64,000 nt of DNA from a virus (IMGVR_UViG_3300019742_000001); one strand, 5' to 3'; numbered from the stretch's first letter, positions 7,782 to 36,716 are shown. A program made the numbers and translations. The notes: generated by a model from the sequence alone, not told the origin.

Positions 7782-8690
7782 TTACCCACGAACACATTCA
7801 GTCATCCATTCCTTTATATAATCTTCATCTGTTTTGTAATCTGACACATCAAGGAATATTGGATAACAATCACTTGGTGCATTATCATTTATACTATCTA
7901 ATACTACCATATCAAGTATATTTCCTCTACACTCTAATGTGAATTGCCTACCGTCTATTGATTTCTTTACTTTCATTACTTTATCCTTATGATACCCTAC
8001 AAACATTCTTACATATTTCTTATATAACTCATTATCATATAAGGTAGTCATATTAGATGTTTCCTGATCTACAACACTTATTACACTATTTTCATTAATT
8101 GGGGTAGTCACATTAGATGTTCCTTGATCTACAACACTTATTACACCATTTCTTAGTTTTTCACGATAACATACACCACATCTTGATCCTTTTCTCCAAT
8201 TATTATACAAAGTTTCAAAGATATGACCATTTGGACATCTCAACTTTAACTTCGTTCGTGCATTCCTATACCCTTCTATCAGTTCATACCCTTCCACTCT
8301 TATTATGTCTGATATTTCTCTTGACTTCTCTTCATTAATAGGTTTAGTGGTGGGTTCTTTTCTCACATATGGTATTGAGTCTGATTGTTGTTTCACTACC
8401 ACATAACCGCTCTTCCCACCTGTAGTCATATTATATCCATTGGGGTAGAGTGTACCTTTTAGTTCAATATAATATGATTCTAATACTTCCGCTTCTTCCT
8501 CTGTTATACCACTGACTAATATTTTCCATTCAAAATCATCCCAATTTTCACTTAGTGCTTGGGATATGGGTGTGGTAGTAGAGTTAATACTACTCCTATG
8601 GGAATTTTTTCTCTGTTCAAAGTTATTACACATTCCCACATAACCCTTACCATTAATGGTATTTGTTGCCTTGTATACTTGATATTTCAT
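7782..8690 (-). CDS. free-standing GIY-YIG homing endonuclease with C-terminal Zn-ribbon
   Basis: YQVYKATNTINGKGYVG...QRKNSH...EAEVLE...GYNMTTGG; CPNGH...CGVC. Confidence 0.85.
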   Translation of the reverse strand: MKYQVYKATNTINGKGYVGMCNNFEQRKNSHRSSINSTTTPISQALSENWDDFEWKILVSGITEEEAEVLESYYIELKGTLYPNGYNMTTGGKSGYVVVKQQSDSIPYVRKEPTTKPINEEKSREISDIIRVEGYELIEGYRNARTKLKLRCPNGHIFETLYNNWRKGSRCGVCYREKLRNGVISVVDQGTSNVTTPINENSVISVVDQETSNMTTLYDNELYKKYVRMFVGYHKDKVMKVKKSIDGRQFTLECRGNILDMVVLDSINDNAPSDCYPIFLDVSDYKTDEDYIKEWMTECVRG

Positions 8691-8724: not shown

Positions 8725-8732
8725 TATTTATA
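8725..8732 (-). promoter_or_regulatory. T4-type late promoter TATAAATA
   Basis: Exact match 35 nt upstream of the GIY-YIG start. Confidence 0.6.
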
Positions 8733-9617: not shown

Positions 9618-9920
9618 TTATACCTCAAAGAGATCATTGGGTAGATTGTTAATAGAAGGATCAATGAGAATGGTAGCATATTCATCGTAGTTGAGTGAGT
9701 GTTGTTGATGATCTTTGAAACGATTGTGATCAATGGATGTATGTTCAGTAGGATGTACAACTTTCATATTAATTAAGTCATATTCATATTTAGCGTTAGA
9801 TAATTGAATGATAGCATTGAAAGGGATTCTGTTGTTATCTTCGGAGTTATGAATAGTGACGAGAGTTCCAATAGGGAGATATTGTAATAGTTTTTTATTA
9901 TATTGTTGTTTCATGGTCAT
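9618..9920 (-). CDS. DLF-tail protein, subfamily I (PIGTxVTIHNS)
   Basis: Ends LPNDLFEV*. Confidence 0.85.
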   Translation of the reverse strand: MTMKQQYNKKLLQYLPIGTLVTIHNSEDNNRIPFNAIIQLSNAKYEYDLINMKVVHPTEHTSIDHNRFKDHQQHSLNYDEYATILIDPSINNLPNDLFEV

Positions 9921-9922
9921 GT

Positions 9923-10201
9923 TTATACCTCAAAGAGATCATTGGGTAGAGAAGAGTTAATGGTAGCATATTCGTTCTCATTAAGAGAGTGTTGGTTATG
10001 TTTTTTAAAACGACTGTGATTGATAGTTGTGGGTTCAGTAGGATGTACAACTTTCATATTAGAGTGGTCGTAACTGAATTCAATGATAGCTAATTGAATG
10101 ATAGCTTGGAATGGTTGATCATTGTTATCTTCGGAGTTATGAATAGTGACGTGTGTGCCAATAGGTAGATCTTGTAATTGTTGTTTATTATATCGTTTCA
10201 T
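9923..10201 (-). CDS. DLF-tail protein, subfamily I
   Basis: Ends LPNDLFEV*. Confidence 0.85.
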   Translation of the reverse strand: MKRYNKQQLQDLPIGTHVTIHNSEDNNDQPFQAIIQLAIIEFSYDHSNMKVVHPTEPTTINHSRFKKHNQHSLNENEYATINSSLPNDLFEV

Positions 10202-10203
10202 GA

Positions 10204-10488
10204 TTATACCTCAAAGAGATCATTGGGTAGATTGTTAATAGAAGGATCAATGAGAATAGTAGCGTATTCATTGGGTTCTAATAAGTGTTGATTATATTGA
10301 GTAAAGGTATGATGAGAAAGCATGATACCGACATCAGGGTTAATAGCCCGAGAATTGTTACCGTATACCAAAGAGTCTTGAGATATTTGAATGGTTCCAT
10401 TGAAAGGAGTAGGGTAAAAGTCAGAGTTATGAACAGTGACGTGAGTTCCAATAGGGAGATCATCAAGGTTATGGTATCGTTTATTCAT
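10204..10488 (-). CDS. DLF-tail protein, subfamily I
   Basis: Ends LPNDLFEV*. Confidence 0.85.
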   Translation of the reverse strand: MNKRYHNLDDLPIGTHVTVHNSDFYPTPFNGTIQISQDSLVYGNNSRAINPDVGIMLSHHTFTQYNQHLLEPNEYATILIDPSINNLPNDLFEV

Positions 10489-10490
10489 AG

Positions 10491-10757
10491 TTATACCTCA
10501 AAGAGATTGTCATCAAATAGGTTCGTCATTTTTGTTATGCCAGTTTTTGTTATGCCAGTAATTCTACATTCAGGTGTCCAATGAGTTCCATAGAATGTGA
10601 ATCTGCTGTGTCTTAGGTTATGGTTATTGTCAATAGGTTTAGTGCAATACCCAATAGCAGTGCTAGAGTTTTCAAATCCAACAATTCTTACATTGAATGA
10701 ATGATTGTCATGTTGTATTGTAACTAAATCGTTCACCTTATATTTGTGGTTATTCAT
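10491..10757 (-). CDS. DLF-tail protein, subfamily II
   Basis: Ends FDDNLFEV*; 95 bp identical to 11024-11290. Confidence 0.85.
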   Translation of the reverse strand: MNNHKYKVNDLVTIQHDNHSFNVRIVGFENSSTAIGYCTKPIDNNHNLRHSRFTFYGTHWTPECRITGITKTGITKMTNLFDDNLFEV

Positions 10758-10759
10758 AG

Positions 10760-11020
10760 TTATACCTCAAATAGATCATCATCAAATAGTGAGTCATCTA
10801 ATATAGAGAAGGTTTCTTTGTTAACGACATAGTGTTGTTTATTTTTTTTGTACATTGAGTGGTCCAAAAAGATATCAGGGTTAATAACTTTAATATTAGA
10901 GTTAGGAACAAATTGGACCGAACCATTGAAAGGTTTATAATCGTTATACTCAGAGTTATGAATAGTAACTCTAGTACCAATATGGATATTTTGTAGATGA
11001 TTAGGTTGATGTTTAATCAT
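10760..11020 (-). CDS. DLF-tail protein, subfamily I
   Basis: Ends LDDSLFDDDLFEV*. Confidence 0.85.
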   Translation of the reverse strand: MIKHQPNHLQNIHIGTRVTIHNSEYNDYKPFNGSVQFVPNSNIKVINPDIFLDHSMYKKNKQHYVVNKETFSILDDSLFDDDLFEV

Positions 11021-11023
11021 TGG

Positions 11024-11290
11024 TTATACCTCAAATAGATCATTAGGTAAAAGGTTTTTAGGTAAAAGGTTTTTAGGTTTAACTAATGAGATAACACATT
11101 TTTCCGTAATCCAATGAGTTCCATTTAATTTATATCTGGGATGGTCAAGTTTATGGTTATCATCAATAGGTTTAGTGCAATACCCAATAGCAGTGCTAGA
11201 GTTTTCAAATCCAACAATTCTTACATTGAATGAATGATTGTCATGTTGTATTGTAACAATATCATTCACCTTATATTTGTGAGTATTCAT
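11024..11290 (-). CDS. DLF-tail protein, subfamily II
   Basis: Ends LPKNLLPNDLFEV*. Confidence 0.85.
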   Translation of the reverse strand: MNTHKYKVNDIVTIQHDNHSFNVRIVGFENSSTAIGYCTKPIDDNHKLDHPRYKLNGTHWITEKCVISLVKPKNLLPKNLLPNDLFEV

Positions 11291-11292
11291 AG

Positions 11293-11559
11293 TTATACCT
11301 CAAAGAGATCATTAGGTAAAGGGTTAATGATCGTAAAAGATTCATTATCACTAAGGAAATGTTGTTTATTATTTTGGTAACGAGGATGATCTAATTGTAC
11401 ATCAGGTCTAACCAAGTTAATCTTATGTAGAGGATCTTTAGATAATTCAACAGTTCCAGAGAAAGGAATGCCATCATTATATTCAGTATTGGAAATATTG
11501 ATACGAGTACCAATAGGAAGATTTTGAATTAGATCATTAGGTTTATGTTTATCAGACAT
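11293..11559 (-). CDS. DLF-tail protein, subfamily I
   Basis: Ends LPNDLFEV*. Confidence 0.85.
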   Translation of the reverse strand: MSDKHKPNDLIQNLPIGTRINISNTEYNDGIPFSGTVELSKDPLHKINLVRPDVQLDHPRYQNNKQHFLSDNESFTIINPLPNDLFEV

Positions 11560-11562
11560 TGA

Positions 11563-11835
11563 TTATACCTCAAAGAGATCATTAGGTAAATGGTTAATGA
11601 TCGTAGCATATTCATCTTCACATATTTGGTGTTGTTTGTTTGATCTGTATCTGCCGTGGTCAATGAATACATCAGGGTTAATGACTTTGGTTTTCGATTC
11701 AGATATTTTTGTAGAGAATTGAACAGTGCCCGTGAAGGGTTGATTGTTATTATATGTAGTGTCATGGATAGTAACACGTGTACCAATAGGAAGATTTTCA
11801 ATAGATTGTTGATTATAATGTTTATTCATGTTCAT
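11563..11835 (-). CDS. DLF-tail protein, subfamily I
   Basis: Ends LPNDLFEV*. Confidence 0.85.
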   Translation of the reverse strand: MNMNKHYNQQSIENLPIGTRVTIHDTTYNNNQPFTGTVQFSTKISESKTKVINPDVFIDHGRYRSNKQHQICEDEYATIINHLPNDLFEV

Positions 11836-11837
11836 AG

Positions 11838-12116
11838 TTATACCTCAAAGAGATCATCAGGTAAGTTGTTACATTCGTAATTGATTATAGAGAAATATTC
11901 ACCATGGCACATAAAGTGTTGTTCGTGTATTCTATAGCGATCGTGTGATATTATAACGTGTTCATCAGGTTTAATAACTTTTTGGTTACGTTCATTACGG
12001 TCTAAGGATAGTTCTACCGTGGCATTAAAAGGTTTTCTATTATTGTATACCGAGTTATGAATAGTAACACGAGTACCAACATTTATAGATTGTAATTCTT
12101 CAGGGAGAAGTTTCAT
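11838..12116 (-). CDS. DLF-tail protein, subfamily I
   Basis: Ends LPDDLFEV*. Confidence 0.85.
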   Translation of the reverse strand: MKLLPEELQSINVGTRVTIHNSVYNNRKPFNATVELSLDRNERNQKVIKPDEHVIISHDRYRIHEQHFMCHGEYFSIINYECNNLPDDLFEV

Positions 12117-15360: not shown

Positions 15361-16170
15361 TTACTCGTTAATCATTTCGTCTAATAGTTTTGTTTTAACC
15401 ACACTGGTATAGATATCATATCCAACAAGTATAGAGTTACCATCTGTCCAACATTCTCTATCATCATTCTTTGGTAATGCACCACCAGCAACGATTAGCT
15501 TGAATTTATAAGGTTTGAGTATTTCGTTCAACATTTCGGAACATGATTTATCGTGATCAACCATATATGTCAACAATTGATTTGATGTTTTATTAAAGAA
15601 TTCTATTCTGGCATCACTATTCATATTTGCCCACATTTCATCGATACGCATAACAGAATCTCTAAGAGTATTCCAATCTTTGGCAATGTATTTCTTTTCA
15701 CCTATGAGTCTATTATATAGTTCAGACAGTTCATAGTTAACATCAGCAATAGTGGTATAATATCCTTTGAAACTATCCCAGAAATCACTAGCAGGGCATA
15801 ATCCAATAGAAGAATTATCATAAGGTAGTACAAGGTATCGTTCATCCATAGTGCCATATGCCCCATCAAGACTACTTGAGCATATAAGTGATTGACTTCT
15901 TTTAGGAAATTTAGACCATTGTTTTGAGTTATCTATCCATAGAGTATAATGATTATCAGTATTTGCTGATTTTCTATTGAATTTGGATGGTTCAACATAA
16001 CCGAAGTCACTACGAATAGACACATGACCTCTAAATAGACCTTGTTTATCTTCTGTGAATCGTCTCCATGCTTTACGACAGTTTTTCTTGATGATTTGTG
16101 CTGCTTCATCCATGTTAACGACTTTGGTTCTACCTTCTTTTGATTCTGATATAAACGATTGTAATCTCAT
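15361..16170 (-). CDS. putative ADP-ribosyltransferase-fold virion protein, subfamily A
   Basis: Leader MRLQSFISE; LFRGH / SLICSSS / RECW. Confidence 0.55.
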   Translation of the reverse strand: MRLQSFISESKEGRTKVVNMDEAAQIIKKNCRKAWRRFTEDKQGLFRGHVSIRSDFGYVEPSKFNRKSANTDNHYTLWIDNSKQWSKFPKRSQSLICSSSLDGAYGTMDERYLVLPYDNSSIGLCPASDFWDSFKGYYTTIADVNYELSELYNRLIGEKKYIAKDWNTLRDSVMRIDEMWANMNSDARIEFFNKTSNQLLTYMVDHDKSCSEMLNEILKPYKFKLIVAGGALPKNDDRECWTDGNSILVGYDIYTSVVKTKLLDEMINE

Positions 16171-16200
16171 TGAATAATATTCTCCTGTGTGGTATACTAT

Positions 16201-16208
16201 TATTTATA
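16201..16208 (-). promoter_or_regulatory. late promoter TATAAATA
   Basis: Exact match about 30 nt upstream of 16170. Confidence 0.7.
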
Positions 16209-16256
16209 TTTACAGTGATAATTTATGGTGTTATATTATAGGAAAAGGGGGTATAT

Positions 16257-16535
16257 ATGTCGTTCAAAGAGGGTGATAGTGTTAGGTTACTTCTGTGTAA
16301 AGATATGAATGTATCTTTACGTACTGAGTGGGCTGAGTGGTGGAAGAAAAACAAAAATACAGTATTCACTTTATCGGAATATCGGACAAATGGTAATTGG
16401 TTTATGAAATATCCTAATGGTGATACTGTGTATAATCTACGTGGTGGTGGTGATGACCCAATAACATTTAATCATACAGAGATATATGTATGTAATCCAC
16501 CTATTAAATGGGAAGAGGATTTATTTGAGATATGA
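16257..16535 (+). CDS. DLF-tail protein
   Basis: MSFKEGDSV...WEEDLFEI*. Confidence 0.8.
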   Translation: MSFKEGDSVRLLLCKDMNVSLRTEWAEWWKKNKNTVFTLSEYRTNGNWFMKYPNGDTVYNLRGGGDDPITFNHTEIYVCNPPIKWEEDLFEI

Positions 16536-16888
16536 TTAAATATTATGCACTAAATGATGATAATATAGCAGTTGAGTGTAATATGGAGTATGCACTACTT
16601 TGTGGTACAGAGGATCTTGTTAGTAATATCATTCAACAAACAGATGTTAGTGATGGTTTGATGGTATCAACAATATTCTTGGGAATGGATCATTGTTTTG
16701 GTGGTAGTGAATCAACACCTTTGTTGTTTGAGACAATGTTGATGGGTAACACAGAAGAGGAAGAAGTATGTGTTAGATATGAAACATATGTTCAAGCAGT
16801 GGAAGGTCATTGGAATATGGTCAAAAGATATGGTGGTTCAAAACCAGTGTCGTTACCATTGTTAGATGATAATCTGTTTATCTTATAG
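16532..16888 (+). CDS. DLF-tail protein with an unrelated body (VSTIFLGMDH...LLFETM)
   Basis: Ends LDDNLFIL*. Confidence 0.8.
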   Translation: MIKYYALNDDNIAVECNMEYALLCGTEDLVSNIIQQTDVSDGLMVSTIFLGMDHCFGGSESTPLLFETMLMGNTEEEEVCVRYETYVQAVEGHWNMVKRYGGSKPVSLPLLDDNLFIL

Positions 16889-17143
16889 GGTGAACAGATC
16901 ATCTTTGAAATGATTTGGTTGGTATTCACATAGATCAGTACAGTCATCTTTATCTAAGAATTGGTTTACCACATCCCATGTCATTTTATGTGTAATATTA
17001 TCATCTAATGAGACAAACTCAATATGTTGTCGTATACAATCATTCATTACGCACACCCATATAATGGGATCGTTAACTTCTGCCGAGTCAATCTCAATAT
17101 ATTGTTGTCCTCTAATAAAGTCTTTTGCCTTAGTCATTTTCAT
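16883..17143 (-). CDS. DLF-tail protein
   Basis: Ends FKDDLFTL*; stop overlaps the convergent neighbour. Confidence 0.75.
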   Translation of the reverse strand: MKMTKAKDFIRGQQYIEIDSAEVNDPIIWVCVMNDCIRQHIEFVSLDDNITHKMTWDVVNQFLDKDDCTDLCEYQPNHFKDDLFTL

Positions 17144-17544
17144 GATGGATTCGTAATCATTGAATATAGAGTTAGTTTCTTGGTTAGTTTTATTCCCATC
17201 TTATTAAGAAGAATAGACCATATAATAGAAGAAATTGAAATTACATTACTTGACCATACATATACAACAGGAAGACCAATGCCATAAATTGATACTGACA
17301 AAATGAGTAATATGATTAATATAGCAACAACCATAACATTGAGATACCAAGTAGCAGAGAAGTTCAATACTTTCACTAAGTCACGATGAACAGTAAGTTC
17401 TTGTTCTCGTTCATATATCAGTTGTCTAGGCACATCTTGTCTTATCTTTGACAACACTCGTGCGGCATCAGTATAATCATTATCCATACCATGTAGAAAT
17501 ATTTTTTCACATTCTTTCATCATTTTTCTTTCGGATCTTGTCAT
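17140..17544 (-). CDS. hypothetical membrane protein
   Basis: Two hydrophobic segments in the C-terminal half. Confidence 0.7.
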   Translation of the reverse strand: MTRSERKMMKECEKIFLHGMDNDYTDAARVLSKIRQDVPRQLIYEREQELTVHRDLVKVLNFSATWYLNVMVVAILIILLILSVSIYGIGLPVVYVWSSNVISISSIIWSILLNKMGIKLTKKLTLYSMITNPS

Positions 17545-17577
17545 TCGTATATCCCTTTCCAGATTTTAGTTAAGATG

Positions 17578-17606
17578 ATAGTATCATAGGTGTAAGTGAG
17601 TGTCAA
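17578..17606 (-). promoter_or_regulatory. sigma70-like promoter
   Basis: TTGACA-17-TACTAT. Confidence 0.65.
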
Positions 17607-17610
17607 ATAT

Positions 17611-17618
17611 TATAAATA
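17611..17618 (+). promoter_or_regulatory. late promoter TATAAATA heading the leader-protein cluster
   Basis: Exact match 30 nt upstream of ATG 17648. Confidence 0.7.
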
Positions 17619-17647
17619 TAACTGAAACCAAAATATATGGAGAATAT

Positions 17648-18631
17648 ATGAGATTTGAAGATTTACTATTGAATGAGAAGGCAATGACACCGAAACAGGC
17701 TATCAAGTTTGCTACTGATACTGATTATAATAATATATCAAGTGCGTCAGAGAAAGAGTTCATTGAGACATGGAAAATGATAACCAAGGAGTGTAAAGGT
17801 TTCATTCGTGAATTGAGGAAAGGTGATCAATTATTGTTTAGAGGTATGAAAAACATAGACAATATGGGTAGCAGAGTACCGAGGAAGAATCGTAGACCTT
17901 TGGATACACCAACCGCAGTAAGTGACAAAGCCGATGAAATAATATTAGAGTTATTTGGATGGAAACCGAGACAAGAGGGTTTATTCACAACAGGAAATAC
18001 ATTGTTTGCTGGTGGGTATGGTGATATTTGCATGGTCTTTCCGGTAGACAAGTATGATATACTATGGAGTTCAAAGACAACTGATGCATATTCCAAATTA
18101 AGAGATAGGTCAATTGGTGATTACATTAGGAAGAACTACACAAAAGAATTGAAGACAATGTATGATAAAAAATTTGCTGAGGGACATGAGGGTGTGTATC
18201 GGATAAGAGATAAAGGATATAATGTACCACTCCAAAAGAAATATAGGATTAAAAAAGCTGCAATCAAGTATTATGTTGATTATATTAAACAAAGTAACTT
18301 GATTCAAGGGGATGTAGAAGAGTTCGTAAAAGATAATATATATTGGGACCCAGAGAGGTCATTTGATGGTTTCCTTAATTGGGTAAGACATGGGTATTTT
18401 CTTGATGAAGGTAGGAAGTCGTGGCCAGAAGGATTTGATAAATTATTCAGTGATGCTGTTGAGAAGATGGTAATTGATGAACTTGATTATAATGATAAAG
18501 ATTTAAGAAAGGCGATACAATCAGGTAATGAGATTCAAGTAAAGTGTGACAAATACTATTACATTGGACTGGAATGTATGCCATTAGTTGAATTATGTTT
18601 ATGGGGTAAGACGATAAGGAGTGAAATTTAA
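17648..18631 (+). CDS. putative ART-fold virion protein, subfamily B
   Basis: Start reassigned (GGAG RBS, MRFEDLLLNEK); LLFRGM / EGLFTTG / GNEIQV. Confidence 0.55.
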   Translation: MRFEDLLLNEKAMTPKQAIKFATDTDYNNISSASEKEFIETWKMITKECKGFIRELRKGDQLLFRGMKNIDNMGSRVPRKNRRPLDTPTAVSDKADEIILELFGWKPRQEGLFTTGNTLFAGGYGDICMVFPVDKYDILWSSKTTDAYSKLRDRSIGDYIRKNYTKELKTMYDKKFAEGHEGVYRIRDKGYNVPLQKKYRIKKAAIKYYVDYIKQSNLIQGDVEEFVKDNIYWDPERSFDGFLNWVRHGYFLDEGRKSWPEGFDKLFSDAVEKMVIDELDYNDKDLRKAIQSGNEIQVKCDKYYYIGLECMPLVELCLWGKTIRSEI

Positions 18632-19281
18632 TGAGATTACAACAATACATAACAGAAGGTGTTAGTGTAAAATATGATGACATATATGATATAATACCAC
18701 TAATAAAACGTGATTGTAAGAAGTGGATTAATGAAAGTAACGGACAGTTTGCGTTTAGAGGTATGAAAAACAAACCATTATTTATTAAACATGACGTAAG
18801 GAAAAACAGAAAACCAAAAGATACATCAAAGTCCCAACATGAATTGATGGATAACGTGATGAATGACAAATTTGGATGGCATCCTCGTTCTGAGGGTTTG
18901 TTTTGTTCGGGTGATATGATGTCAACAACTGATTATGGTGTTCCATACATGATATTTCCTATAGGTGATTATAGATATGTATGGAACCCAAAAGTTAAAG
19001 ATAGTTTTCTTGATACTTCTAACTTTTCATCATGGTGGGTCCAATTACTGAGTATTGCTATCGAAGATAAATTCTTAAATAAATTTATTATGGAAAAATC
19101 AACTAAAAAAATGTTGAAGGGGTACATTGATACTGGATTAAGTAACGCATTAAGACGAGATAATGAGGTAATGGTCGAATGTAAAGAGTATTATGCTATA
19201 CGAGCAGAATCCATACATAGTGTATATAATGATGACGCTCCATATGCATCATTCACAGACTTTTTGGTGGATATATCATGA
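18631..19281 (+). CDS. putative ART-fold virion protein, subfamily B
   Basis: MRLQQYITE; FAFRGM / EGLFCSG / DNEVMV. Confidence 0.55.
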   Translation: MRLQQYITEGVSVKYDDIYDIIPLIKRDCKKWINESNGQFAFRGMKNKPLFIKHDVRKNRKPKDTSKSQHELMDNVMNDKFGWHPRSEGLFCSGDMMSTTDYGVPYMIFPIGDYRYVWNPKVKDSFLDTSNFSSWWVQLLSIAIEDKFLNKFIMEKSTKKMLKGYIDTGLSNALRRDNEVMVECKEYYAIRAESIHSVYNDDAPYASFTDFLVDIS

Positions 19282-19874
19282 GATTACAACAATACATAAC
19301 AGAGAAGGCATCAAAGAACACCATTGTATGTGATGTTCAACCAATGTATGAACAATATCAGTCATTTGAGACATATGAGTTCACTGAATTCCTTAATACT
19401 CAAACTAAACAAGTTATGTATTATTTCAATGGACCTGATACTGTTGGTACTGATACAGAGAGTGATATCAAATACTGGTTGATTGAGAATGGATTGAATG
19501 AGGAAAAACTCAATGATATCACATTCTTTGATAAGGGGTATGCATATTTCCGATCATTTATGGATGAAGGTATATCCGAACATACAATAATCAAGATGAT
19601 TAGATATATGTTCAAGACAAGACAATGGGATTCACGTGATATAGAAAATGAAGAGTGGGAGAAGGCATTGGGTAGTGACTATGATAGTGATGTTGAACAT
19701 ATGTTAGACAGTGGTGATATGATTTATCCACCTGATATTGATATTCGTCAACTAAGGCAACACGGTGGAGGGTATATCGTAGGTGGTGGTAAGAGAGAAT
19801 GTTTGGCAGAACTTCAATTATTGATGTCTGCGTTTAATATAAAAGCAAGAGAAATTAAAAGATATGTATATTAG
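19278..19874 (+). CDS. isochorismatase/cysteine-hydrolase-like protein with leader
   Basis: MRLQQYITE; IVCDVQP...DKGY...IVGGGKRECL (D-K-C triad pattern). Confidence 0.55.
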   Translation: MRLQQYITEKASKNTIVCDVQPMYEQYQSFETYEFTEFLNTQTKQVMYYFNGPDTVGTDTESDIKYWLIENGLNEEKLNDITFFDKGYAYFRSFMDEGISEHTIIKMIRYMFKTRQWDSRDIENEEWEKALGSDYDSDVEHMLDSGDMIYPPDIDIRQLRQHGGGYIVGGGKRECLAELQLLMSAFNIKAREIKRYVY

Positions 19875-19883
19875 GAGATTATA

Positions 19884-20600
19884 ATGGTAAATTTAAAAGG
19901 TGCTTATGTTACAAAAGATGTGAAATTGGATAGATTACCCGATTTCGATGAAAGAAGTAAAAACTTTCCTATCAGAGAGTTGTCTGGTTCAAAGAAACAA
20001 CGGTCATACACTTGGCGTTGTAATGAACAATTAGATCAAGGACCAGATGGTGCATGTGTTGGGTTTGGTGTTGCACATGAGTTAATCGCAAGACCAGCAG
20101 AAGTTAAAGGTATCACTGACACTTATGCAAAACAGAATATCTATTGGGAAGCACAGAAGATTGATCCTTGGGATGGTGGTAGTTATCCCGGTGCATCACC
20201 ATTTTATGAAGGAACAAGTGTTCTTGCTGGTGTTAAAGTAGTTCATAAAATGGGTTGGATTGATTCATATCGTTGGGCATTTGGATTGGAAGACTTGATT
20301 CTTGGTGTTGGTCATAATGGTCCAGCCGTTATTGGTGTTGGATGGCACGGCAACATGTTTCAACCTGATTCAGATGGTTACATTCACGCATCAGGTGGTA
20401 TCTATGGTGGTCACTGTGTATTAGTAAATGCAGTTAATGTTAAGAAACAACGATTTACTATTCATAACTCATGGGGTAAATCATGGGGTATGAATGGTGA
20501 GTGTTATATTTCATTTGAAGATATGGGTAAACTATTGGCAGATCGGGGAGAAGCAGTATTCTTCTTAAAACGTCATAACAAAAAACAACCACAAATATAA
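19884..20600 (+). CDS. papain-like (C1) cysteine peptidase
   Basis: DQGPDGACVGFG, GGHCV, HNSWGKSWGMNG. Confidence 0.9.
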   Translation: MVNLKGAYVTKDVKLDRLPDFDERSKNFPIRELSGSKKQRSYTWRCNEQLDQGPDGACVGFGVAHELIARPAEVKGITDTYAKQNIYWEAQKIDPWDGGSYPGASPFYEGTSVLAGVKVVHKMGWIDSYRWAFGLEDLILGVGHNGPAVIGVGWHGNMFQPDSDGYIHASGGIYGGHCVLVNAVNVKKQRFTIHNSWGKSWGMNGECYISFEDMGKLLADRGEAVFFLKRHNKKQPQI

Positions 20601-20623
20601 TTAAAGTATGGAGGAATAATAGT

Positions 20624-21520
20624 ATGAGATTGGATCATTTTTTGGTGGAAGGTAGATCAAAATCACTAAAATTACAACAATTCAGAGATGAACTTGGTAG
20701 TGGGAAATATTCCGATGTATTAAAGTATTATAAAAGTTTGGATGATCCCACATCAGGGTTTATATACAGAGGTAATCGGTCATCCGATACATTGGCTGTT
20801 GTAGACCCTAAGACATCAACTAGGACTAGTCAAAACACAGATAATTATTACACTCTTTTTATTGATAATGATCCATCGTGGTCTAAATTCCCTAAAAGGA
20901 GTAAGTCACTAATCTGTACAACTGATTACTCAAAATCAATATTATATGGTAATGGTTATGTAATGTTCCCTGTTAACGGATCGGATATAGGAATTTGTCC
21001 AAAGGGAGATATATGGGGTAGTTTTAAGGGGTTAGAGTCTAGTGGGGGTAATGATGGGTTTTTGGCATTACTTTTTGAGTCATTTAACGATATGTTTACT
21101 GTTATTAACAAAAGCGGGGAGATAAAAGAATGTTTTAATGAAGATTTTTCTATAGAGTCTCTTGTGAATAGTATGCTTAGCAGATCTAAGCCAACTAAAC
21201 ATAAAACTTATGATGATGACATTGGAACATTTAAGAAACAACTGAAATATCTCGACCAACACATCAAAAAGAACGGACCAGATATATATTTGGGGTATCT
21301 ACCTCTGATTGATAAGTTGTTTAATACATTTTACAAAGGTGATATGTATAAGTGTATATCTGATATACTTGATCCCAAAAGAAGTGGGTTTAAGTTACAA
21401 AAGGTTGGCAAAAAACTACCAACCAATGGACATGAAGTATGGACTGATGGTAAATGTTTAATGATGGATGTTCATCTTTTTGGTCAATTACATGATTCAG
21501 GTGAATTGTATGATTTGTAA
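20624..21520 (+). CDS. putative ART-fold virion protein, subfamily A
   Basis: MRLDHFLVE; IYRGN / SLICTTD / HEVW. Confidence 0.55.
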   Translation: MRLDHFLVEGRSKSLKLQQFRDELGSGKYSDVLKYYKSLDDPTSGFIYRGNRSSDTLAVVDPKTSTRTSQNTDNYYTLFIDNDPSWSKFPKRSKSLICTTDYSKSILYGNGYVMFPVNGSDIGICPKGDIWGSFKGLESSGGNDGFLALLFESFNDMFTVINKSGEIKECFNEDFSIESLVNSMLSRSKPTKHKTYDDDIGTFKKQLKYLDQHIKKNGPDIYLGYLPLIDKLFNTFYKGDMYKCISDILDPKRSGFKLQKVGKKLPTNGHEVWTDGKCLMMDVHLFGQLHDSGELYDL

Positions 21521-21547
21521 AGAAATCACTAAAGAGGGTGGAAGTAT

Positions 21548-22387
21548 ATGAAATTACAGAGATATTTAATAGAAGGTCGTACCCAGAGTCTACCAAAAGA
21601 TGAATTCGAAAAACTGTTGAGAACTGACTATAGAGATTCTGTTATGTCAGTAATCAATGGAAAAGGGATGTTGTTTCGTGGTAACAAAGATACTCCACAA
21701 TATGGATATGTTGATACTTCAAAGGGGAAACTTAGACGATCTGCAAATACAAGTAATGAATATACACTGTGTATTGATAATTCGTCAAGGTGGAAGAATT
21801 ACCCTCGACGTGGTAGATCATTAATATGTTCCACCAGTTTATTATATGCTATTAATTATGGTCATCTTAATATTGTATTACCTATCAATGGATCATCTAT
21901 AGGTATATGTTCTGATGACGATTTTTGGTATAGTTTCCCATATATAGAGAAAGTGTTGCATATTAGAGATATGGATTCATTCAATAGTGAATTCAGGGAT
22001 CTATTACGTTGGGGTACAGGTAATAGAACCAATGATAAAAATTGGGCACAACTTAGATCGGCAATGAAAGAATTTGATAAGAAATTTGAGAATTATAATT
22101 ATGACTGGGACAATGTGTTTTCTGAAATATATTCGGGGATTAATTATACAAAATCTGCTTCTGCATGGGATGACGCATGGAAGGGTAGTTTACAAAAAAC
22201 TATCAATGATATAATAGATCCTGTAAATAATGAATTCAAGTTAGTCAATATTGGTGACCAGTTTGATGATGATTGTGAAGCATGGTTTAGTGGTAAATCA
22301 CTTGTTATCAATACTAACTATTTTGGTGACAAAGGTGAATATGAAAAAACATTGAATTATTTGATGTCAGTTATGGAGGGACATTAG
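21548..22387 (+). CDS. putative ART-fold virion protein, subfamily A
   Basis: MKLQRYLIE; LFRGN / SLICSTS / CEAW. Confidence 0.55.
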   Translation: MKLQRYLIEGRTQSLPKDEFEKLLRTDYRDSVMSVINGKGMLFRGNKDTPQYGYVDTSKGKLRRSANTSNEYTLCIDNSSRWKNYPRRGRSLICSTSLLYAINYGHLNIVLPINGSSIGICSDDDFWYSFPYIEKVLHIRDMDSFNSEFRDLLRWGTGNRTNDKNWAQLRSAMKEFDKKFENYNYDWDNVFSEIYSGINYTKSASAWDDAWKGSLQKTINDIIDPVNNEFKLVNIGDQFDDDCEAWFSGKSLVINTNYFGDKGEYEKTLNYLMSVMEGH

Positions 22388-22391
22388 GTTT

Positions 22392-22973
22392 ATGAAATTA
22401 CAGAGATATATAAATGAAATGGGGTTTGATGAGGAACAGGATTTATGGCAAAAAGAGATCTTGCCCAAACTTGAAAAGGATTGTAAACCATTCCTCAAAG
22501 AAAAGACATTACTTTATAGAGGTTTTGGTAGAAGATTTGATTTCGAATTTATCATACCTCGTAAGGATAGAAGACCATTGGATAGCCCACAGTGGTTCCA
22601 TGATGGTTTCGATAATGCATCTAAAAAAGTGTTTGGTTGGAAGTCGAGATCAGAGGGAGTCTTTGCATCATCTACATATTCAACAGCTAGTGCTTATGCT
22701 GGTAGTGGTACAGTGGCAATGGTATTCCCTAAAGGTAAATTCAAGTATATCTGGTCATCAAAGATCAATGATTTATTTGATGAACTCAATGATGAAGATT
22801 TCTCAATATTTGATGATGAAACTGCGTGGGTTCAATTCGTAAAACAGAACTACCAAGATAATAATTTAAGATCGGTTCGCAACGAAAACACAGAGATTAT
22901 GTTGTATTGTCCTAATGGATATTACGCGGTGGATGTGGCGTTTGATGAGGCTGTAAAAAAGGTGTTATTATGA
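22392..22973 (+). CDS. putative ART-fold virion protein, subfamily B
   Basis: MKLQRYINE; LYRGF / EGVFASST / NTEIML. Confidence 0.55.
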   Translation: MKLQRYINEMGFDEEQDLWQKEILPKLEKDCKPFLKEKTLLYRGFGRRFDFEFIIPRKDRRPLDSPQWFHDGFDNASKKVFGWKSRSEGVFASSTYSTASAYAGSGTVAMVFPKGKFKYIWSSKINDLFDELNDEDFSIFDDETAWVQFVKQNYQDNNLRSVRNENTEIMLYCPNGYYAVDVAFDEAVKKVLL

Positions 22974-23710
22974 GATTAGAATCGTATATAGATAGTAGTG
23001 ATATAACATATGAACAGTATGTATCAGGTATTGACTCATATTTCTCAGTGGATGAGGGTTTCAAAGAGGTCAAGGATAAGTCGGTTGCATTTGTTAAGAG
23101 ACAATTGAAGATGGCATCAGATGAATTTGATAAGATATCACATGAACTAGGGTTGTCATTGATTCAGATATCACATGCATTAACGGAAAAGAATGTGTTC
23201 AAGTTACTGAAATCAATAGGGTTTTCTTTCGTGAAACTTTTATCATCATTAAATGGATTATCAGGTATAGTTCGTCAAGGTCTGTTTGATGCATTTGAAG
23301 AATTATCCAAAACACAACTATGGATGAAGTTCAAGTCTGGTGTTGCTGCATGGGATGATATACTTGACCGATATCCAGTGATGAAAAAAGTAACTGGTGT
23401 GTTAGTCGCAGGTCTTTTGTTTTTCATGTGGACACAAATGACATTCATTGGAAATCTTGACTATGATTTTGATTTCACCTCAATTGCGTTGGCATTGAAA
23501 GGGAAATACTCACTGGAACAAATATTTGGTGGTCCTGAAGGTGCAATGTTATTGACACTGTTCGCTAGTGGATCATTAATTAGTGTTGCTTGGTTGGGTG
23601 AAACTGTATACAACCTGATCTTGGCATTGGTTTACACAGGTTCCAAGAAATTGTCAACTGTTGACCATAAGGTGGTTAACATAATCAAATCAAAAATGGT
23701 ATTCGAATGA
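22970..23710 (+). CDS. hypothetical membrane-associated protein with leader
   Basis: MRLESYI; hydrophobic segments VTGVLVAGLLFFMW and AMLLTLFASGSLISVAWL. Confidence 0.7.
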   Translation: MRLESYIDSSDITYEQYVSGIDSYFSVDEGFKEVKDKSVAFVKRQLKMASDEFDKISHELGLSLIQISHALTEKNVFKLLKSIGFSFVKLLSSLNGLSGIVRQGLFDAFEELSKTQLWMKFKSGVAAWDDILDRYPVMKKVTGVLVAGLLFFMWTQMTFIGNLDYDFDFTSIALALKGKYSLEQIFGGPEGAMLLTLFASGSLISVAWLGETVYNLILALVYTGSKKLSTVDHKVVNIIKSKMVFE

Positions 23711-24543
23711 GATTAGAACAGTATATTATCAACGAGAGTTCAAGATCAAAACCTTTGGACAAAGAAACGTTCGAAGAATTGTTGAGAACTGATTATAGTG
23801 ATGCTGCTAAGGCATTAGTCAAAAATGCCAGTAGTAGATTGTATCGTGGTAACTATGATCTTGCAAGATATGCCTTAACCGACCCTACCAAGGGAAGGTT
23901 ACGGAGATCATCTAACACATCAAATGAGTATACTCTGTTTATGGATAACAACAAGATATGGAATGAGTATCCTAATCGTGGTCGTTCCATTATATGTTCA
24001 ACCGATATGTTATCATCAGAACAGTATGGTGATAATGGGTTGGTTATCCCAATGAATGGCACACTACTTGGTCAATGTAATGAGTTTGATTTGTGGTCAT
24101 CATTCAAAGTATTGGAGAAATCACTTGATGTCGAGGATATGGATGATTTTAATCACACGTTACGTTTTCTAATTGGTGTAGGAAATGATACTAATTGGCG
24201 TACGTTACGTAAATCATTTACAACATTTGACAAGAAGCTAAAAGAGGGTGGTTGGGAATCGATATACAATGATATCATTACCAAGACTAAATATCAAAAG
24301 GAATATGCTCGTGAACTGGTTAGTAGGTGGGAGAAAATATGGAAGGGTTCTATGATGAAGACAATGGAATATCTATTAGATCCAAAGACTAACAAGTTTA
24401 AATTAAAGAAATCAGGTGACAAATTTGAACCAAATCGTGAGGTATGGGTTGGCGGTAAGGCGTTATATGTATCACTTGATTATCTTGACGCTACATCGGG
24501 TGATAAACACACAATCGATTATATAAAGAGGGTTATATCATGA
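23707..24543 (+). CDS. putative ART-fold virion protein, subfamily A
   Basis: MRLEQYIINE; LYRGN / SIICSTD / REVW. Confidence 0.55.
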   Translation: MRLEQYIINESSRSKPLDKETFEELLRTDYSDAAKALVKNASSRLYRGNYDLARYALTDPTKGRLRRSSNTSNEYTLFMDNNKIWNEYPNRGRSIICSTDMLSSEQYGDNGLVIPMNGTLLGQCNEFDLWSSFKVLEKSLDVEDMDDFNHTLRFLIGVGNDTNWRTLRKSFTTFDKKLKEGGWESIYNDIITKTKYQKEYARELVSRWEKIWKGSMMKTMEYLLDPKTNKFKLKKSGDKFEPNREVWVGGKALYVSLDYLDATSGDKHTIDYIKRVIS

Positions 24544-24986
24544 AATTATGTCAATACTTAATAGAATCCAATAGATTGAAGGTATACTTCGCACATCCAC
24601 GGGCAACGTATGGTAAACCAGAGGAAACAAAATGTATTAAAATGATAACTGACAAATTCCCTGAACATATCATTGTCACACCTAATAACAGTAATATCAT
24701 AGATCGTGCCAATAAGATGGGGTTTGATATATTCTTTGGGATTATTAATACAACACAGATAATGTGTGTTATGCCATTCAAAGATGGGATCATAGGTAAT
24801 GGCGCGTATCGTGAGTGTGAACATGCTAGTAAGAAGGGGATACCGATATTTGTTGTAAATCCTTGGAATAATACTATTACTGTAACACCATTTCATAAGT
24901 TGAAGGGTATCAGTCCAGAAGAAACGTTTGGTCGTATTGACAAAAAAGATCAACATAAATGGAAGGTACATGAGACAAGTGTATAA
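24540..24986 (+). CDS. nucleoside 2-deoxyribosyltransferase-like protein with leader
   Basis: MKLCQYLIE; KVYFAHP...GAYRECEHASKKGIPIFV. Confidence 0.6.
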   Translation: MKLCQYLIESNRLKVYFAHPRATYGKPEETKCIKMITDKFPEHIIVTPNNSNIIDRANKMGFDIFFGIINTTQIMCVMPFKDGIIGNGAYRECEHASKKGIPIFVVNPWNNTITVTPFHKLKGISPEETFGRIDKKDQHKWKVHETSV

Positions 24987-24989
24987 ATA
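24982..24989 (+). promoter_or_regulatory. late promoter TATAAATA
   Basis: Exact match upstream of the DHH gene. Confidence 0.65.
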
Positions 24990-25017
24990 GTTAAAGATCA
25001 AATAAAATTTAATTTAT

Positions 25018-26466
25018 GTGGAGAAATATATGAAGAACATGTTTGAACAAATTGAAAGGGCACAATCAGCAGTAGATCGTGTTGATGAAAGTGGTATTAA
25101 GAATATTAGAATGTGGGCAAAAAAGTATAAAGAAGCCGAAGGTTATTATCATATGGATACAGATGGTGTTACATCAGCTATCGCAATGAAAGCCTATCTT
25201 GAGGCGTATGGTATTAAAACAGTGGCAGTTCATAAGATTAACTATGGTTCCAATGAGTTCTCGGCAGTTAAGGCAAAGAAAGGTCGTTTGGTGTGGATGG
25301 TTGACTTTGCACACGGTAAACCTTTCCTTCATATTCATACTGATCATCATGACGCACAAACAGGTGATGCAGAAACTACTTCAACCGCATTTGAGAAAGC
25401 TCCTTCTAACGTACAAGCAATCAGTCAGAAGATTAGTCCAAGAGATTTATTCTCTGCGGAAGACATCAAGGTTATTTCGATGGTTGATACTGCCGACTTC
25501 GCTAAGAATGATATCACACCTGATCAAGTAATGAACGCAGCATTCGGATATGACAAAACATTGAATGTTGACCGTAATCACACTATGATGGGATTGGTTG
25601 TTAACAAACTCTTATTGGCATACAAGAATAAGAAAGGTTTCCTTGATAAATTGGTGTTACAAGCAAAACCTTCATTAATCAGCCTGTATACTGTTATCAA
25701 GAAAGTGGCAAAAGAAGAAAATTATAAGACACCAGCAGAAGTTGGTAGTGGTGTTGAAAACTACGTATCAGCACAGAAAGGTAAGATCATTGAACCAGAT
25801 ATTGATCCTAGTAAACTTAAAGGTGGACAGTCTACAATGTGGGGTTCAACTATCGTACAATACGGTGGTGGTGGTATGTTCAATGGTTATGACCGTTATA
25901 CACCATTCAAGAATAATCCAACAGCAGACTATTTGATCATTGCATGGCCTATGGGATTGGTTCAAGCATCAAAGAATCCATTCAAAGGTGGTAGTAATCC
26001 TCATCCATTAGGTGATTTGGCTATCAAGAAATTGTTAGGTAACAGTAAATGGAAGTCACGTCTAAGTAAAGTGAATGTATCGTTAGCTGAGATCAAGAGA
26101 ATCTTTGAAATGGATATCAAACCAGCAGATCGTGATGCTATGGGATTCAATTTTGAAGACTTTGCTTCGTTGGTTACCAAAGATCAAGTTAAAGGTATGG
26201 ATATAGAGGGTAATAGTGGTTACACTGGATTCATTAAATCACTGGCTAACGTAAAATTCAGTCAGTTGTCATACAAACAGAAACAAAACTTAGAGAAAGT
26301 CACTGTATCTGTATATGACATCATGGTTGCACAGTCTGGTGGTCATAGAGATATCACAAATGTTCAAGGTTTTAATTTTTTGGGTAAAGGATATGTTGAT
26401 ATAATGAAGGAGTTTATGAAAGATCTTGCTCTTGAGTTGAAAGACAAACGATTGGAGAAAAAATAA
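25018..26466 (+). CDS. DHH/DHHA1-family phosphoesterase
   Basis: HMDTDGVTS, MVDF, TDHH, VDTAD, SGGH; true start likely a few codons downstream. Confidence 0.75.
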   Translation: MEKYMKNMFEQIERAQSAVDRVDESGIKNIRMWAKKYKEAEGYYHMDTDGVTSAIAMKAYLEAYGIKTVAVHKINYGSNEFSAVKAKKGRLVWMVDFAHGKPFLHIHTDHHDAQTGDAETTSTAFEKAPSNVQAISQKISPRDLFSAEDIKVISMVDTADFAKNDITPDQVMNAAFGYDKTLNVDRNHTMMGLVVNKLLLAYKNKKGFLDKLVLQAKPSLISLYTVIKKVAKEENYKTPAEVGSGVENYVSAQKGKIIEPDIDPSKLKGGQSTMWGSTIVQYGGGGMFNGYDRYTPFKNNPTADYLIIAWPMGLVQASKNPFKGGSNPHPLGDLAIKKLLGNSKWKSRLSKVNVSLAEIKRIFEMDIKPADRDAMGFNFEDFASLVTKDQVKGMDIEGNSGYTGFIKSLANVKFSQLSYKQKQNLEKVTVSVYDIMVAQSGGHRDITNVQGFNFLGKGYVDIMKEFMKDLALELKDKRLEKK

Positions 26467-26690
26467 TGAGTAGATTAAGTGATTTATTAGAGTCTAACAA
26501 CAATCGTGGTAATGACAGACTTGATCCAGATGAATTAGCTGATCAAATAGGTGGATATTTTGAAGATGTTATGTTCAATCTTGAATCTATTAGTGAGTTG
26601 CCTGTTGTACCACCTAAATTGAAGACTCGTTTACGTAAAATATACAAAGATGTCTTGAACATCAAAGGTGATTTAGACAAGGAGTTATAA
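26466..26690 (+). CDS. hypothetical protein with leader
   Basis: MSRLSDLLES. Confidence 0.65.
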   Translation: MSRLSDLLESNNNRGNDRLDPDELADQIGGYFEDVMFNLESISELPVVPPKLKTRLRKIYKDVLNIKGDLDKEL

Positions 26691-26977
26691 TGGATTTACT
26701 ACAGAAGATTGACATATATATCAACGAAATGATTGAAGTTGAAGTGAATGGGTTAAGAAATGGTAAGAATATACTATTCACAGTAGGTAGACATAATCTT
26801 AGGGTATTTGTTGATAAGGTACAATTCAGTATTGCAACAAAATCTGTCACTAAAGAGAAATTCCTTTCGTCAAGTGATGGTAGGGCTGTCCATAGGGCAT
26901 ACATTAAGAACAAACAAGAGAACAGTGATTACTTTAATAATAAGAATCTTAATATACAAAAAATTATAAGGGCTTAA
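26690..26977 (+). CDS. hypothetical protein with leader-like N-terminus
   Basis: MDLLQKIDIYINE. Confidence 0.65.
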   Translation: MDLLQKIDIYINEMIEVEVNGLRNGKNILFTVGRHNLRVFVDKVQFSIATKSVTKEKFLSSSDGRAVHRAYIKNKQENSDYFNNKNLNIQKIIRA

Positions 26978-26979
26978 TT

Positions 26980-28494
26980 ATGACACTAAAAGATGAATAC
27001 GAAAAACTAAAATTAAACCCTGTTCTGACTGAGGTAGAAGGTATTGACTCTGATCCAGAAGGGGAAGAGACACCAGAGGTTGAATTAGTTGAAGGATTTA
27101 ACGTACTTATACTGACATCATCAACTGACTCAAAGAATAACAGAATGTCTAAGAAAAATCCAACTGTTGTTAAAATGGAGAATTGGTGTAAATCAAACGA
27201 TGTTCCTTATTACACGGCATTTGCTGACACAGCAATTTTAAGTGTGAACGATGGTGAGATCCGTATTCATAATATTAACGACACCGATGGATGTGTCATT
27301 GATCGTGATAAGACATTTGTTATCGCTCGTCGTGGTGTTATGTTCCATAGATATTCACTTAACCTAATGTCTCGTTTGGAGAGATATCGTTTCTGTTTCC
27401 TTAATGAACGTGTCGCTCTTGAGACATGTGAAGACAAATACTTAACAAACCTTAACCTTATTGAATCTAAGGTACCTATCCCTGATTCACATTTGGTGCC
27501 AACTGAGGAAATGATTACACTTGCTCACGAAAAAGTTGGTGGTAAATTCCCTATCGTGGTCAAGACATTGAATGGTACTCAAGGTAAAGGAGTGTTCATT
27601 GTCAACAATTACAAGGCATTGAAGTCAACACTACAGGCTATTTGGTCTGTTGGTGGTGATGTGGAAATGATGTTCCAACAATATATCAAGTCAGAATATG
27701 ATGTTAGAATACACGTACTTGGTGATGAAGTAATTGGTGCAATGAAAAGAACAGTAGTTGATAATGACTTCCGTTCTAATGTTCATTTAGGTGGTAAGAC
27801 CAGTAAATACAAACCATCCAAAGAAATTAAAGAGTTGGCTGTTAAAGCCGCTCAGGCTGTTAAATGTAAATGGGCTGGTGTTGATATTATGTTTGATTCT
27901 AAAGATAATCCATATGTATTGGAAGTTAATGCTTCAGCAGGTACAGATGGTATTGAAGATCTAACTGGTATTGATATTGTTGGTAATGTGATGGAGTTTT
28001 GCAAAAATGGTATCAATTGGAATAGACCACCTCAACAGGTAGGTGTGGTTGAAACTATGGAAATTGATGGTATTGGTGAATTAATAGCTCGGTTTGATAC
28101 TGGTAATGACGCTAATAGCTCCTCACTTGACGCACAAGACATTAAAATCAATGGAACCAAGGTTACGTGGAAGACTAACGGTAAAACTCTCACAGGGTCA
28201 ATCATTGGTAACGTACGTATGAAGAATAATCACGATCCAGATGAAAAACTTGATGCAAAACGTCCTATCGTATTATTGGATGTTACGTTCCAAGGTGTTA
28301 CTTATAAAGATGTTCCGTTTAATCTTAATAATAGAAGCAATAAAAAAACACCTATTTTGATCAATAAGAACTTTATGATCCAATCTGGTTCTGTTGTTAA
28401 TCCATCTAAAATTTATAGTGTAACATCAAAACCTGACTATTTAAAAAAGAAAAGAAAGAAAATAGTAAAAAAAGAAGAAAGAGACGAAAATTAA
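26980..28494 (+). CDS. RimK-family ATP-grasp ligase fused to a retropepsin-like (DTG) protease domain
   Basis: DKYLT, PIVVKTLNGTQGKGV, QQYI, DVRIHV, FRSNVHLGG, GVDI, VLEVNAS; C-terminal ARFDTGN. Confidence 0.85.
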   Translation: MTLKDEYEKLKLNPVLTEVEGIDSDPEGEETPEVELVEGFNVLILTSSTDSKNNRMSKKNPTVVKMENWCKSNDVPYYTAFADTAILSVNDGEIRIHNINDTDGCVIDRDKTFVIARRGVMFHRYSLNLMSRLERYRFCFLNERVALETCEDKYLTNLNLIESKVPIPDSHLVPTEEMITLAHEKVGGKFPIVVKTLNGTQGKGVFIVNNYKALKSTLQAIWSVGGDVEMMFQQYIKSEYDVRIHVLGDEVIGAMKRTVVDNDFRSNVHLGGKTSKYKPSKEIKELAVKAAQAVKCKWAGVDIMFDSKDNPYVLEVNASAGTDGIEDLTGIDIVGNVMEFCKNGINWNRPPQQVGVVETMEIDGIGELIARFDTGNDANSSSLDAQDIKINGTKVTWKTNGKTLTGSIIGNVRMKNNHDPDEKLDAKRPIVLLDVTFQGVTYKDVPFNLNNRSNKKTPILINKNFMIQSGSVVNPSKIYSVTSKPDYLKKKRKKIVKKEERDEN

Positions 28495-33809: not shown

Positions 33810-33817
33810 TATAAATA
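33810..33817 (+). promoter_or_regulatory. late promoter TATAAATA for the LAGLIDADG gene
   Basis: Exact match 30 nt upstream; GGAGG RBS follows. Confidence 0.7.
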
Positions 33818-36368: not shown

Positions 36369-36716
36369 TTAATATAATCCGTGTAATATTTTCTTACTAT
36401 CATGATCTAAGAACATTAGGTTTATTGCTATTCTATCACGACAATCAATCCAATTATCAAGATGTTGTCTATATGAAAATGAGCTTCTAATCAAAGTCAC
36501 CATAAACACTGGTTGAAGTCGGTTTAATTCAACTGATTTCAATAACTCATCAATTCCAGATAAACCATAAATTTCTATTGTTTCCTCAATACATTTGATT
36601 AAGGATGCTACAACACGAGCATCTGTAACCTCGTATTCAACATCATAAAACTCTTCCATCCAACTAATATCTAACATTACACTCTCCAAAGAAATGTTCC
36701 AATGATCCCACATCAA
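36369..36716 (-). CDS. hypothetical protein
   Basis: 115 aa ORF. Confidence 0.6.
   Translation of the reverse strand: MMWDHWNISLESVMLDISWMEEFYDVEYEVTDARVVASLIKCIEETIEIYGLSGIDELLKSVELNRLQPVFMVTLIRSSFSYRQHLDNWIDCRDRIAINLMFLDHDSKKILHGLY

Follow-up and report, generated by a model that had tools for sequence, protein, structure and literature searches.

A candidate capsid-targeting leader on mostly unrelated proteins of an uncultured T4-like phage

Genes sharing a short N-terminal leader

The viral genome IMGVR_UViG_3300019742_000001 belongs to an uncultured T4-like phage, of which a stretch of 64,000 nucleotides (nt; hereafter, the window) was analyzed. Many proteins encoded between positions 15361 and 26977 of this window begin with a similar leader of about nine residues, which an earlier note on this DNA had likened to the capsid-targeting sequence (CTS) of T4 internal proteins. 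Leader starts were located with a listing of open reading frames (ORFs) and a regular-expression scan, and 123 likely genes were taken for the leader statistics. Ten genes match the strict pattern M[RK][LF]xx[YFL][ILV]x(x)E, versus 0.01 expected from the amino acid composition (P of about 1e-27), and nine of them lie within 15361-24986. A looser pattern ([YF][IL]x(x)E begun within residues 1 to 11) was observed in 15 genes versus an expected 1.9. The N-termini quoted in the earlier note were all found where it had placed them, and every one starts a genuine ORF at its first ATG.

Seven of the ten strict-leader proteins are paralogous and form two branches, A and B, of a single superfamily; the residues invariant in both are Arg-Gly, Arg, Asp, Arg, Tyr-Gly, Pro, and Trp. 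Family A (PHROG 12810) comprises the candidate cargo proteins encoded at 15361-16170 on the reverse strand (269 amino acids [aa]; MRLQSFISE) and, on the forward strand, at 20624-21520 (298 aa; MRLDHFLVE), 21548-22387 (279 aa; MKLQRYLIE), and 23707-24543 (278 aa; MRLEQYIINE). Family B (PHROG 11975) comprises those at 17648-18631 (327 aa; MRFEDLLLNE), 18631-19281 (216 aa; MRLQQYITE), and 22392-22973 (a minimal form of 193 aa; MKLQRYINE), all on the forward strand. The three remaining strict leaders are found on an alpha/beta protein unrelated to A and B (g19278; 19278-19874, forward; 198 aa; MRLQQYITE), on a protein resembling DUF4406/nucleoside 2-deoxyribosyltransferase proteins (g24540; 24540-24986, forward; 148 aa; MKLCQYLIE), and on a protein of PHROG 1462 outside the cluster (g53338; 53338-54453, reverse; 371 aa; MRLGSYIKE). 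Both g19278 and g53338 belong to virus-only families without known function. The leader DNAs of 18631 and 19278, described in the note as nearly identical, agree at 26 of the first 27 nt.

Weaker forms of the leader occur on further genes. A 74-aa protein (26466-26690, forward) starts with MSRLSDLLE, a looser match to the short leader, and three small ORFs carry a 13-residue form ending in Y-[IL]-x-E, i.e., a 95-aa basic protein (26690-26977, forward; MDLLQKIDIYINE), a 54-aa ORF (52582-52746, reverse; MDITEKIKKYLDE), and an 81-aa protein (63741-63986, reverse; MSIDNVIERYLSE). Since a family-B homolog from another phage (P0123) begins with MTKMDINEVVQKYLKE, which has the same long form, this form is no accident. 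The (I/L)-x-E motif, at which gp21 of T4 cleaves, closes all ten strict leaders and the four long or loose ones; it is absent from a 246-aa protein (g22970; 22970-23710, forward) with the leader-like start MRLESYIDS.

Modularity and conservation of the leader

The seven superfamily cases are paralogs and are therefore not independent. Their bodies are only 19 to 41% identical, and the leader is far better kept. When g19278, g22970, g24540, and g53338 were stripped of their 12 N-terminal residues, no similarity was detected among them or to the A/B superfamily; the window thus contains at least five unrelated families that carry the leader. Seven further leader proteins were found outside the window by walking along contigs of the same phage (leaders include MKLKNILLE and MRLNDYILNE), two of which pass the Pfam Zeta_toxin threshold. 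Window and flanking DNA together encode at least 17 leader-bearing proteins, mostly unrelated and many of them enzyme-like. Judged from these sequences, the leader is a modular tag.

Metagenomic homologs were gathered for family A (119 proteins), family B (13 proteins), and the DUF4406-like g24540 (21 proteins). An identical positional pattern emerged in these three unrelated families, across many phages: residues are constrained at positions 2 (R/K), 3 (L/F), 6 (Y/F), 7 (I/L), and 9 (E) and vary freely at positions 4, 5, and 8. The strict leader begins 50 of 116 family-A homologs, the positional pattern is present in 20/20 DUF4406-like homologs, and a leader was seen on all 21 of the latter that were found. 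Variants also occur, such as MKINEVxxE and MITFKEFINE in metagenomic homologs, MTTFKEYLTE in Ralstonia phage RsoM2USA, and M[RK]Wx[QD]LxE in Agrobacterium phage Atu_ph07. Conservation is at the level of amino acids, with synonymous codons varying, and holds in phages of different composition. In AF2 models of g20624 and g22392 (predicted local distance difference test [pLDDT] scores of 83.8 and 89.1, respectively), the leader is the sole low-confidence segment, with a pLDDT below 50, and Atlas structural alignments of g24540 begin mostly at residues 7 to 13. According to these models, the leader lies outside the predicted folds.

Head genes and TATAAATA motifs

The phage genome is about 239 kb (contigs of 239,309 to 239,651 bp in several ENA assemblies), and the flanking DNA, including the head module, was reached by the same contig walk. 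Its DNA polymerase is only 29% identical to gp43 of a T4-like cyanophage, and a megablast search of the leader cluster against GenBank phages gave no match. A T4-type head operon lies about 48 kb from the window start, round the circular map, and encodes, in addition to a Portal_T4 protein, a very acidic 72-aa protein between portal and protease (L040:12181-12399), a gp21-family Peptidase_S77 (L040:12416-13045; E value of 1.7e-25), a gp22-like T4_CASP scaffold (34.5 bits versus a cut-off of 27), and a Gp23 capsid protein (431 aa; L040:14002-15297). The scaffold contains 16 (I/L)xE sites. The only such site in the first 190 residues of the capsid protein is at residues 16 to 18, which suggests a propeptide much shorter than the 65 residues of T4 gp23. 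The S77 protease itself begins with MKKGLLITE, and the proteases of Atu_ph07 and RsoM2USA begin with MSTKLTE and MIKQQILIE, respectively; an ending of the (I/L)-x-E type is thus found at the protease N-terminus in all three phages. In T4 gp21, an LIE site is located at residue 9 (PMC9026906).

Copies of TATAAATA that the note had listed as late promoters are present at 16201-16208 (reverse; 38 nt upstream of the start at 16170), at 17611-17618 (forward; heading a tightly packed unit, 17648-24986, with gaps between genes of at most about 30 nt), and at 24982-24989 (forward; heading the unit 25018/25030-28494). The motif occurs six times in the window versus 9.1 +/- 2.8 times in shuffles; we therefore rejected it as an enriched motif, and its positions alone are informative. 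For five of the six copies, a start codon in the matching orientation follows 36 to 48 nt downstream, and three of these copies head leader-gene units. Outside the window, TATAAATA precedes two more leader units and the portal operon, and its distance from leader-gene units and the portal operon is 32 to 48 nt throughout. The motif is common to the head operon and the leader units and may serve as a late promoter. Two other copies lie about 40 nt upstream of genes of a different kind, one at 8725-8732 (reverse) before a GIY-YIG homing-endonuclease-like gene (7782-8690, reverse) and one at 33810-33817 (forward) before a gene at 33848-34450 (forward); their placement suggests late expression of both genes.

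Leader proteins in virions of a cultured relative

A search of Atu_ph07 with the pattern M[RK]Wx[QD]LxE returned 13 gene starts, and none were returned by a reversed-pattern control. All 13 leader proteins match, by exact calculated molecular weight, entries in the virion list obtained by electrospray ionization tandem mass spectrometry (Supplementary Table S5 of Attai et al. 2018; PMC6102473). They are gp53 to gp62, which form a tandem array, gp381 (20.00 kDa), gp408 (30.60 kDa), and gp482 (31.68 kDa). Each was seen with 2 to 31 unique peptides, in a list holding 131 of the 714 proteins, and the authors describe them as hypothetical virion proteins (PMC6102473). In the portions of that article consulted, neither a shared N-terminus nor a link to the CTS is mentioned, and an incomplete survey of the literature gave no paper on such a leader in Atu_ph07-like or other non-T-even phages.

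The Atu_ph07 array contains homologs of families A and B, as in the present phage, with a leader that also ends in L-x-E; it differs in having eight residues, with Trp at position 3. One array member, the 778-aa virion protein gp53 (MF403008.1, 39484-41820), joins a family-A domain to a Zeta-toxin domain; in the present phage, kinases of the Zeta type are encoded separately, each with its own leader. Virion proteomics of RsoM2USA covered only the ten strongest gel bands and is uninformative on its leader proteins; the family-A genes of this phage adjoin fiber-like genes.

Predicted ADP-ribosyltransferase-like fold of the A/B superfamily

No Pfam family matches A or B, their PHROGs are without an assigned function, and Pfam scans of 78 family-A members revealed no recurrent family. 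Foldseek searches of the PDB with models of both families gave nothing significant, a search of the AFDB clusters gave uncharacterized proteins only, and the family-A profile retrieved helical noise and nothing relevant from PDB sequences. With an exhaustive structural aligner, about 40 of the 50 matches listed for the family-B model (pLDDT of 89) have an ADP-ribosyltransferase (ART) fold, although the best Z score is only 6.4 (BC2332; root mean square deviation of 3.8 over 131 aligned residues). Other matches include Arr (Z of 5.1), exotoxin A (5.0), and diphtheria toxin (4.8), together with cholix toxin, DarT, Tpt1, and PARPs. For the family-A model, Arr (Z of 5.8) and diphtheria toxin (5.0) came out on top, amid cyclic-nucleotide-monophosphate-binding domains and unrelated beta folds.

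R49, S93, S95, and E271 are nearly invariant among the 78 family-A sequences; among 16 family-B sequences, R43, E88, and E168 show no variation and S87 hardly any. ARTs of the R-S-E type carry Arg on strand 1, Ser-x-Ser on strand 2, and the catalytic Glu on strand 5, and in the predicted models the conserved Arg, Ser, and Glu residues lie on or beside the strands so expected. Alt of T4 is a head-packaged ART, and homology to it was considered for family A and rejected (hhalign probability of 0.4%). Because ART folds dominate the structural matches of the family-B model and the Arg, Ser, and Glu residues are conserved, while the profile comparison with Alt was negative, we call A and B a putative divergent ART-fold family, as modeled, and not members of the Alt family. 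Their products are probably active, NAD-using enzymes.

Interpretation of the leader and alternative explanations

We put at roughly three in four the probability that the leader, M-[RK]-[LF]-x-x-[YF]-[IL]-x-E together with its 13-residue variant, acts as a T4 CTS-like propeptide that targets proteins to the capsid. Under this mechanism, the leader genes would be transcribed late from TATAAATA promoters along with the head genes, and the leader would dock each protein on the gp22-like scaffolding core during prohead assembly. By analogy with T4, the gp21-family S77 prohead protease would then cut after the Glu of (I/L)-x-E and free the mature protein within the head, and the cargo would leave with the DNA at infection and act on the host ahead of any phage gene expression. 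This cargo would comprise the seven ART-fold paralogs, the nucleoside-deoxyribosyltransferase-like protein, and small proteins, as well as two Zeta-toxin-type kinases and others encoded outside the window. The capsid-targeting-like reading advanced in the earlier note is supported by the agreement of modularity, positional constraint, the (I/L)-x-E ending, the S77 protease and scaffold, and the Atu_ph07 virion list, and the enzyme-rich cargo that it envisaged holds at the level of folds or families.

Several observations weigh against this interpretation. The phage is uncultured, and packaging and mature N-termini are predicted here from gene sequences. The Atu_ph07 virions were purified only with polyethylene glycol, and the data document virion association and neither head location nor leader removal (PMC6102473). 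Ten of the 13 Atu_ph07 leader proteins are paralogs of one array in a virion-protein-rich cluster and are for that reason not independent observations. In the window, TATAAATA is without statistical enrichment, the four long or loose leaders are weaker pattern matches, and MRLESYIDS of g22970 lacks the terminal Glu and hence the cleavage motif. Moreover, the C-terminal half of g22970 has two or three hydrophobic, transmembrane-like segments, which stand beside this uncleavable-looking start; the protein could be a packaged membrane-active protein that retains its tag.

Some of these points would also suit a leader that addresses proteins to the virion other than as a gp21-cleaved propeptide of the head core, i.e., to the neck, tail, or fibers, or without being cleaved. 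The Atu_ph07 list documents virion association and not location, the RsoM2USA family-A genes stand beside fiber-like genes, and g22970 bears the tag without the motif. We nevertheless consider this explanation improbable, given that the leader closes in the protease motif, that the protease N-terminus ends alike in three phages, that the spacing of the leader fits the T4 CTS, and that the head-packaged Alt has a similar N-terminus. Were the shared N-terminus instead to serve outside the virion (e.g., as another docking tag, a signal for regulated proteolysis, or a translation-initiation feature of late mRNAs), it would join the peptide tags of other purpose that exist, among them a C-terminal tag that this genome uses on many small proteins, and a papain-like peptidase is encoded inside the leader cluster. 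Conservation of amino acids across synonymous codons in phages of different composition, the presence of all 13 Atu_ph07 leader proteins in the virion list, and the failure of the papain-like peptidase to co-occur with the leader (no match in Atu_ph07 or RsoM2USA) make a function of this sort quite improbable.

Finally, the leader could lack any signal function, and the resemblance would then reflect only common descent and local recombination of tandem paralogs. Seven of the ten strict cases fall in one superfamily, and the 26/27-nt identity of the 18631 and 19278 leaders looks like recent copying. This explanation is already contradicted by the leader on nonhomologous proteins, some of them encoded 30 kb away and elsewhere in the genome; the leader is also much better conserved than the bodies that follow it, and its positional pattern is kept in the 21 DUF4406-like homologs of other phages. 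We regard it as extremely improbable, and the T4 CTS-type propeptide remains our preferred interpretation.

Comparison with known packaging systems

The T4 CTS consists of ten residues (MKTYQEFIAE), of which residues 4 and 7 act in targeting and residues 8 and 10 in processing; Asp at residue 10 blocks processing and keeps packaging (PMC9026906). CTS-like sequences have been noted on further proteins in T-even phages (PMC9026906, PMC3012670). A shift by one residue places L3, Y6, I7, and E9 of the present leader on T4 CTS residues 4, 7, 8, and 10. In both systems, a short N-terminal tag is common to otherwise unrelated proteins, in which P7 and P4 are hydrophobic or aromatic, P3 is I/L, and P1 is Glu. 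The genome described here likewise encodes a gp21-family protease and a gp22-like scaffold, with TATAAATA motifs upstream, and near-identical leader DNA on neighboring genes recurs in T4, where ipII and ipIII both begin with MKTYQEFIAE encoded by identical 30-nt leader DNA. One of the cargo classes predicted here would share the ART-type fold of Alt, which begins with MELITELFDE. The differences are that the tag has nine residues (MRLxxY[IL]xE), that it occurs on at least 17 proteins versus about four or five in T4, and that most of the cargo is 20 to 40 kDa and enzyme-like, not small and basic. In addition, the phage is very distant from T4, and no sequence similarity to Alt could be detected in its ART-fold family.

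In the phiKZ-like giant phages (SPN3US and phiKZ), many head-packaged, injected proteins are likewise cut after Glu by a gp21-related protease, but the motif is A/S-x-E, the propeptides mostly exceed 100 residues, and the cargo families are different (PMC5694885). Head-packaged ARTs are common in myoviruses, in the form of MuF fusions, polyvalent proteins, and Alt-like contexts (Iyer et al. 2022, PMC9503650). The MuF and polyvalent ARTs are also ART-fold enzymes delivered from a myovirus head; in contrast to the separate small tagged proteins of the present phage, they are fused to a MuF or portal-associated domain in a long polypeptide (PMC9503650). None of the leader proteins, which are single-domain proteins of 54 to 371 aa, gave a MuF or ART-PolyVal Pfam match. 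The concept of a CTS and of head-packaged ARTs is already established for T4, and the present system extends known biology without a new principle. By analogy with T4, a mechanism already known would recur here in a distant lineage, as a new case of unusual size whose principal cargo family is also new.

Implications for uncultured phages

Should the tag behave as its T4 counterpart does, the injected proteins of uncultured T4-like and jumbo phages could be predicted from a short regular expression together with the presence of an S77 protease, and such proteins would be the first phage proteins to meet host defenses. Candidate effectors of host takeover or counter-defense would then include the members of a widespread new ART-fold family (PHROGs 12810 and 11975) as well as packaged kinases and enzymes resembling nucleoside transferases. 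A block of the hypothetical virion proteins of Atu_ph07 would be explained, and new, shorter packaging tags would become available for phage-based protein delivery.

We lean, by a narrow measure, toward the broader view that uncultured T4-like and jumbo phages of an entire clade use a lineage-tuned tag of eight to ten residues as a general address label. In that case, the injected proteome of each phage would be readable from its sequence. The present phage would inject at least 20 proteins, including seven or eight of a previously unrecognized ART-like family, an arsenal several times that of T4, and the short and long leader forms and the uncleavable, membrane-type g22970 might set different fates for their proteins.

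Other genes of the cluster and its surroundings

The papain-like peptidase within the unit 17648-24986 (g19884; 19884-20600, forward; 238 aa; PHROG 16701) has no leader. Its homologs come mostly from Mycobacterium, Gordonia, and Streptomyces phages and not from T4-like phages, and a homolog search gave no match in Atu_ph07 or RsoM2USA. On these grounds, g19884 was rejected as a dedicated leader peptidase, and its sequence relationships make a role in leader processing unlikely.

The unit that follows TATAAATA at 24982 (25018-28494, forward) also encodes a weakly DHH-like protein of 478 to 482 aa and a 504-aa protein in which a RimK-type ATP-grasp ligase is fused to a retropepsin-like "Zn_protease" domain (PF05618). 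Between 4993 and 17143, on both strands, many small proteins end in an acidic-Leu-Phe-x-x tail (e.g., ..DLFEI and ..DSLFEV), including nine tandem paralogs of about 86 to 100 aa at 9618-12116 (reverse); this C-terminal tail is a tag system separate from the N-terminal leader. A Mom-family protein (PF25680; E value of 1.4e-19) is encoded at 52724-53332 (reverse), adjoining the leader protein g53338. Lastly, the region 36664-44383 (reverse) encodes a PurZ-like adenylosuccinate synthetase homolog (PHROG 1211), a NAMPT-like protein (41799-43022), and RtcB (43091-44383), which suggest modified-base synthesis, NAD salvage, and RNA repair.

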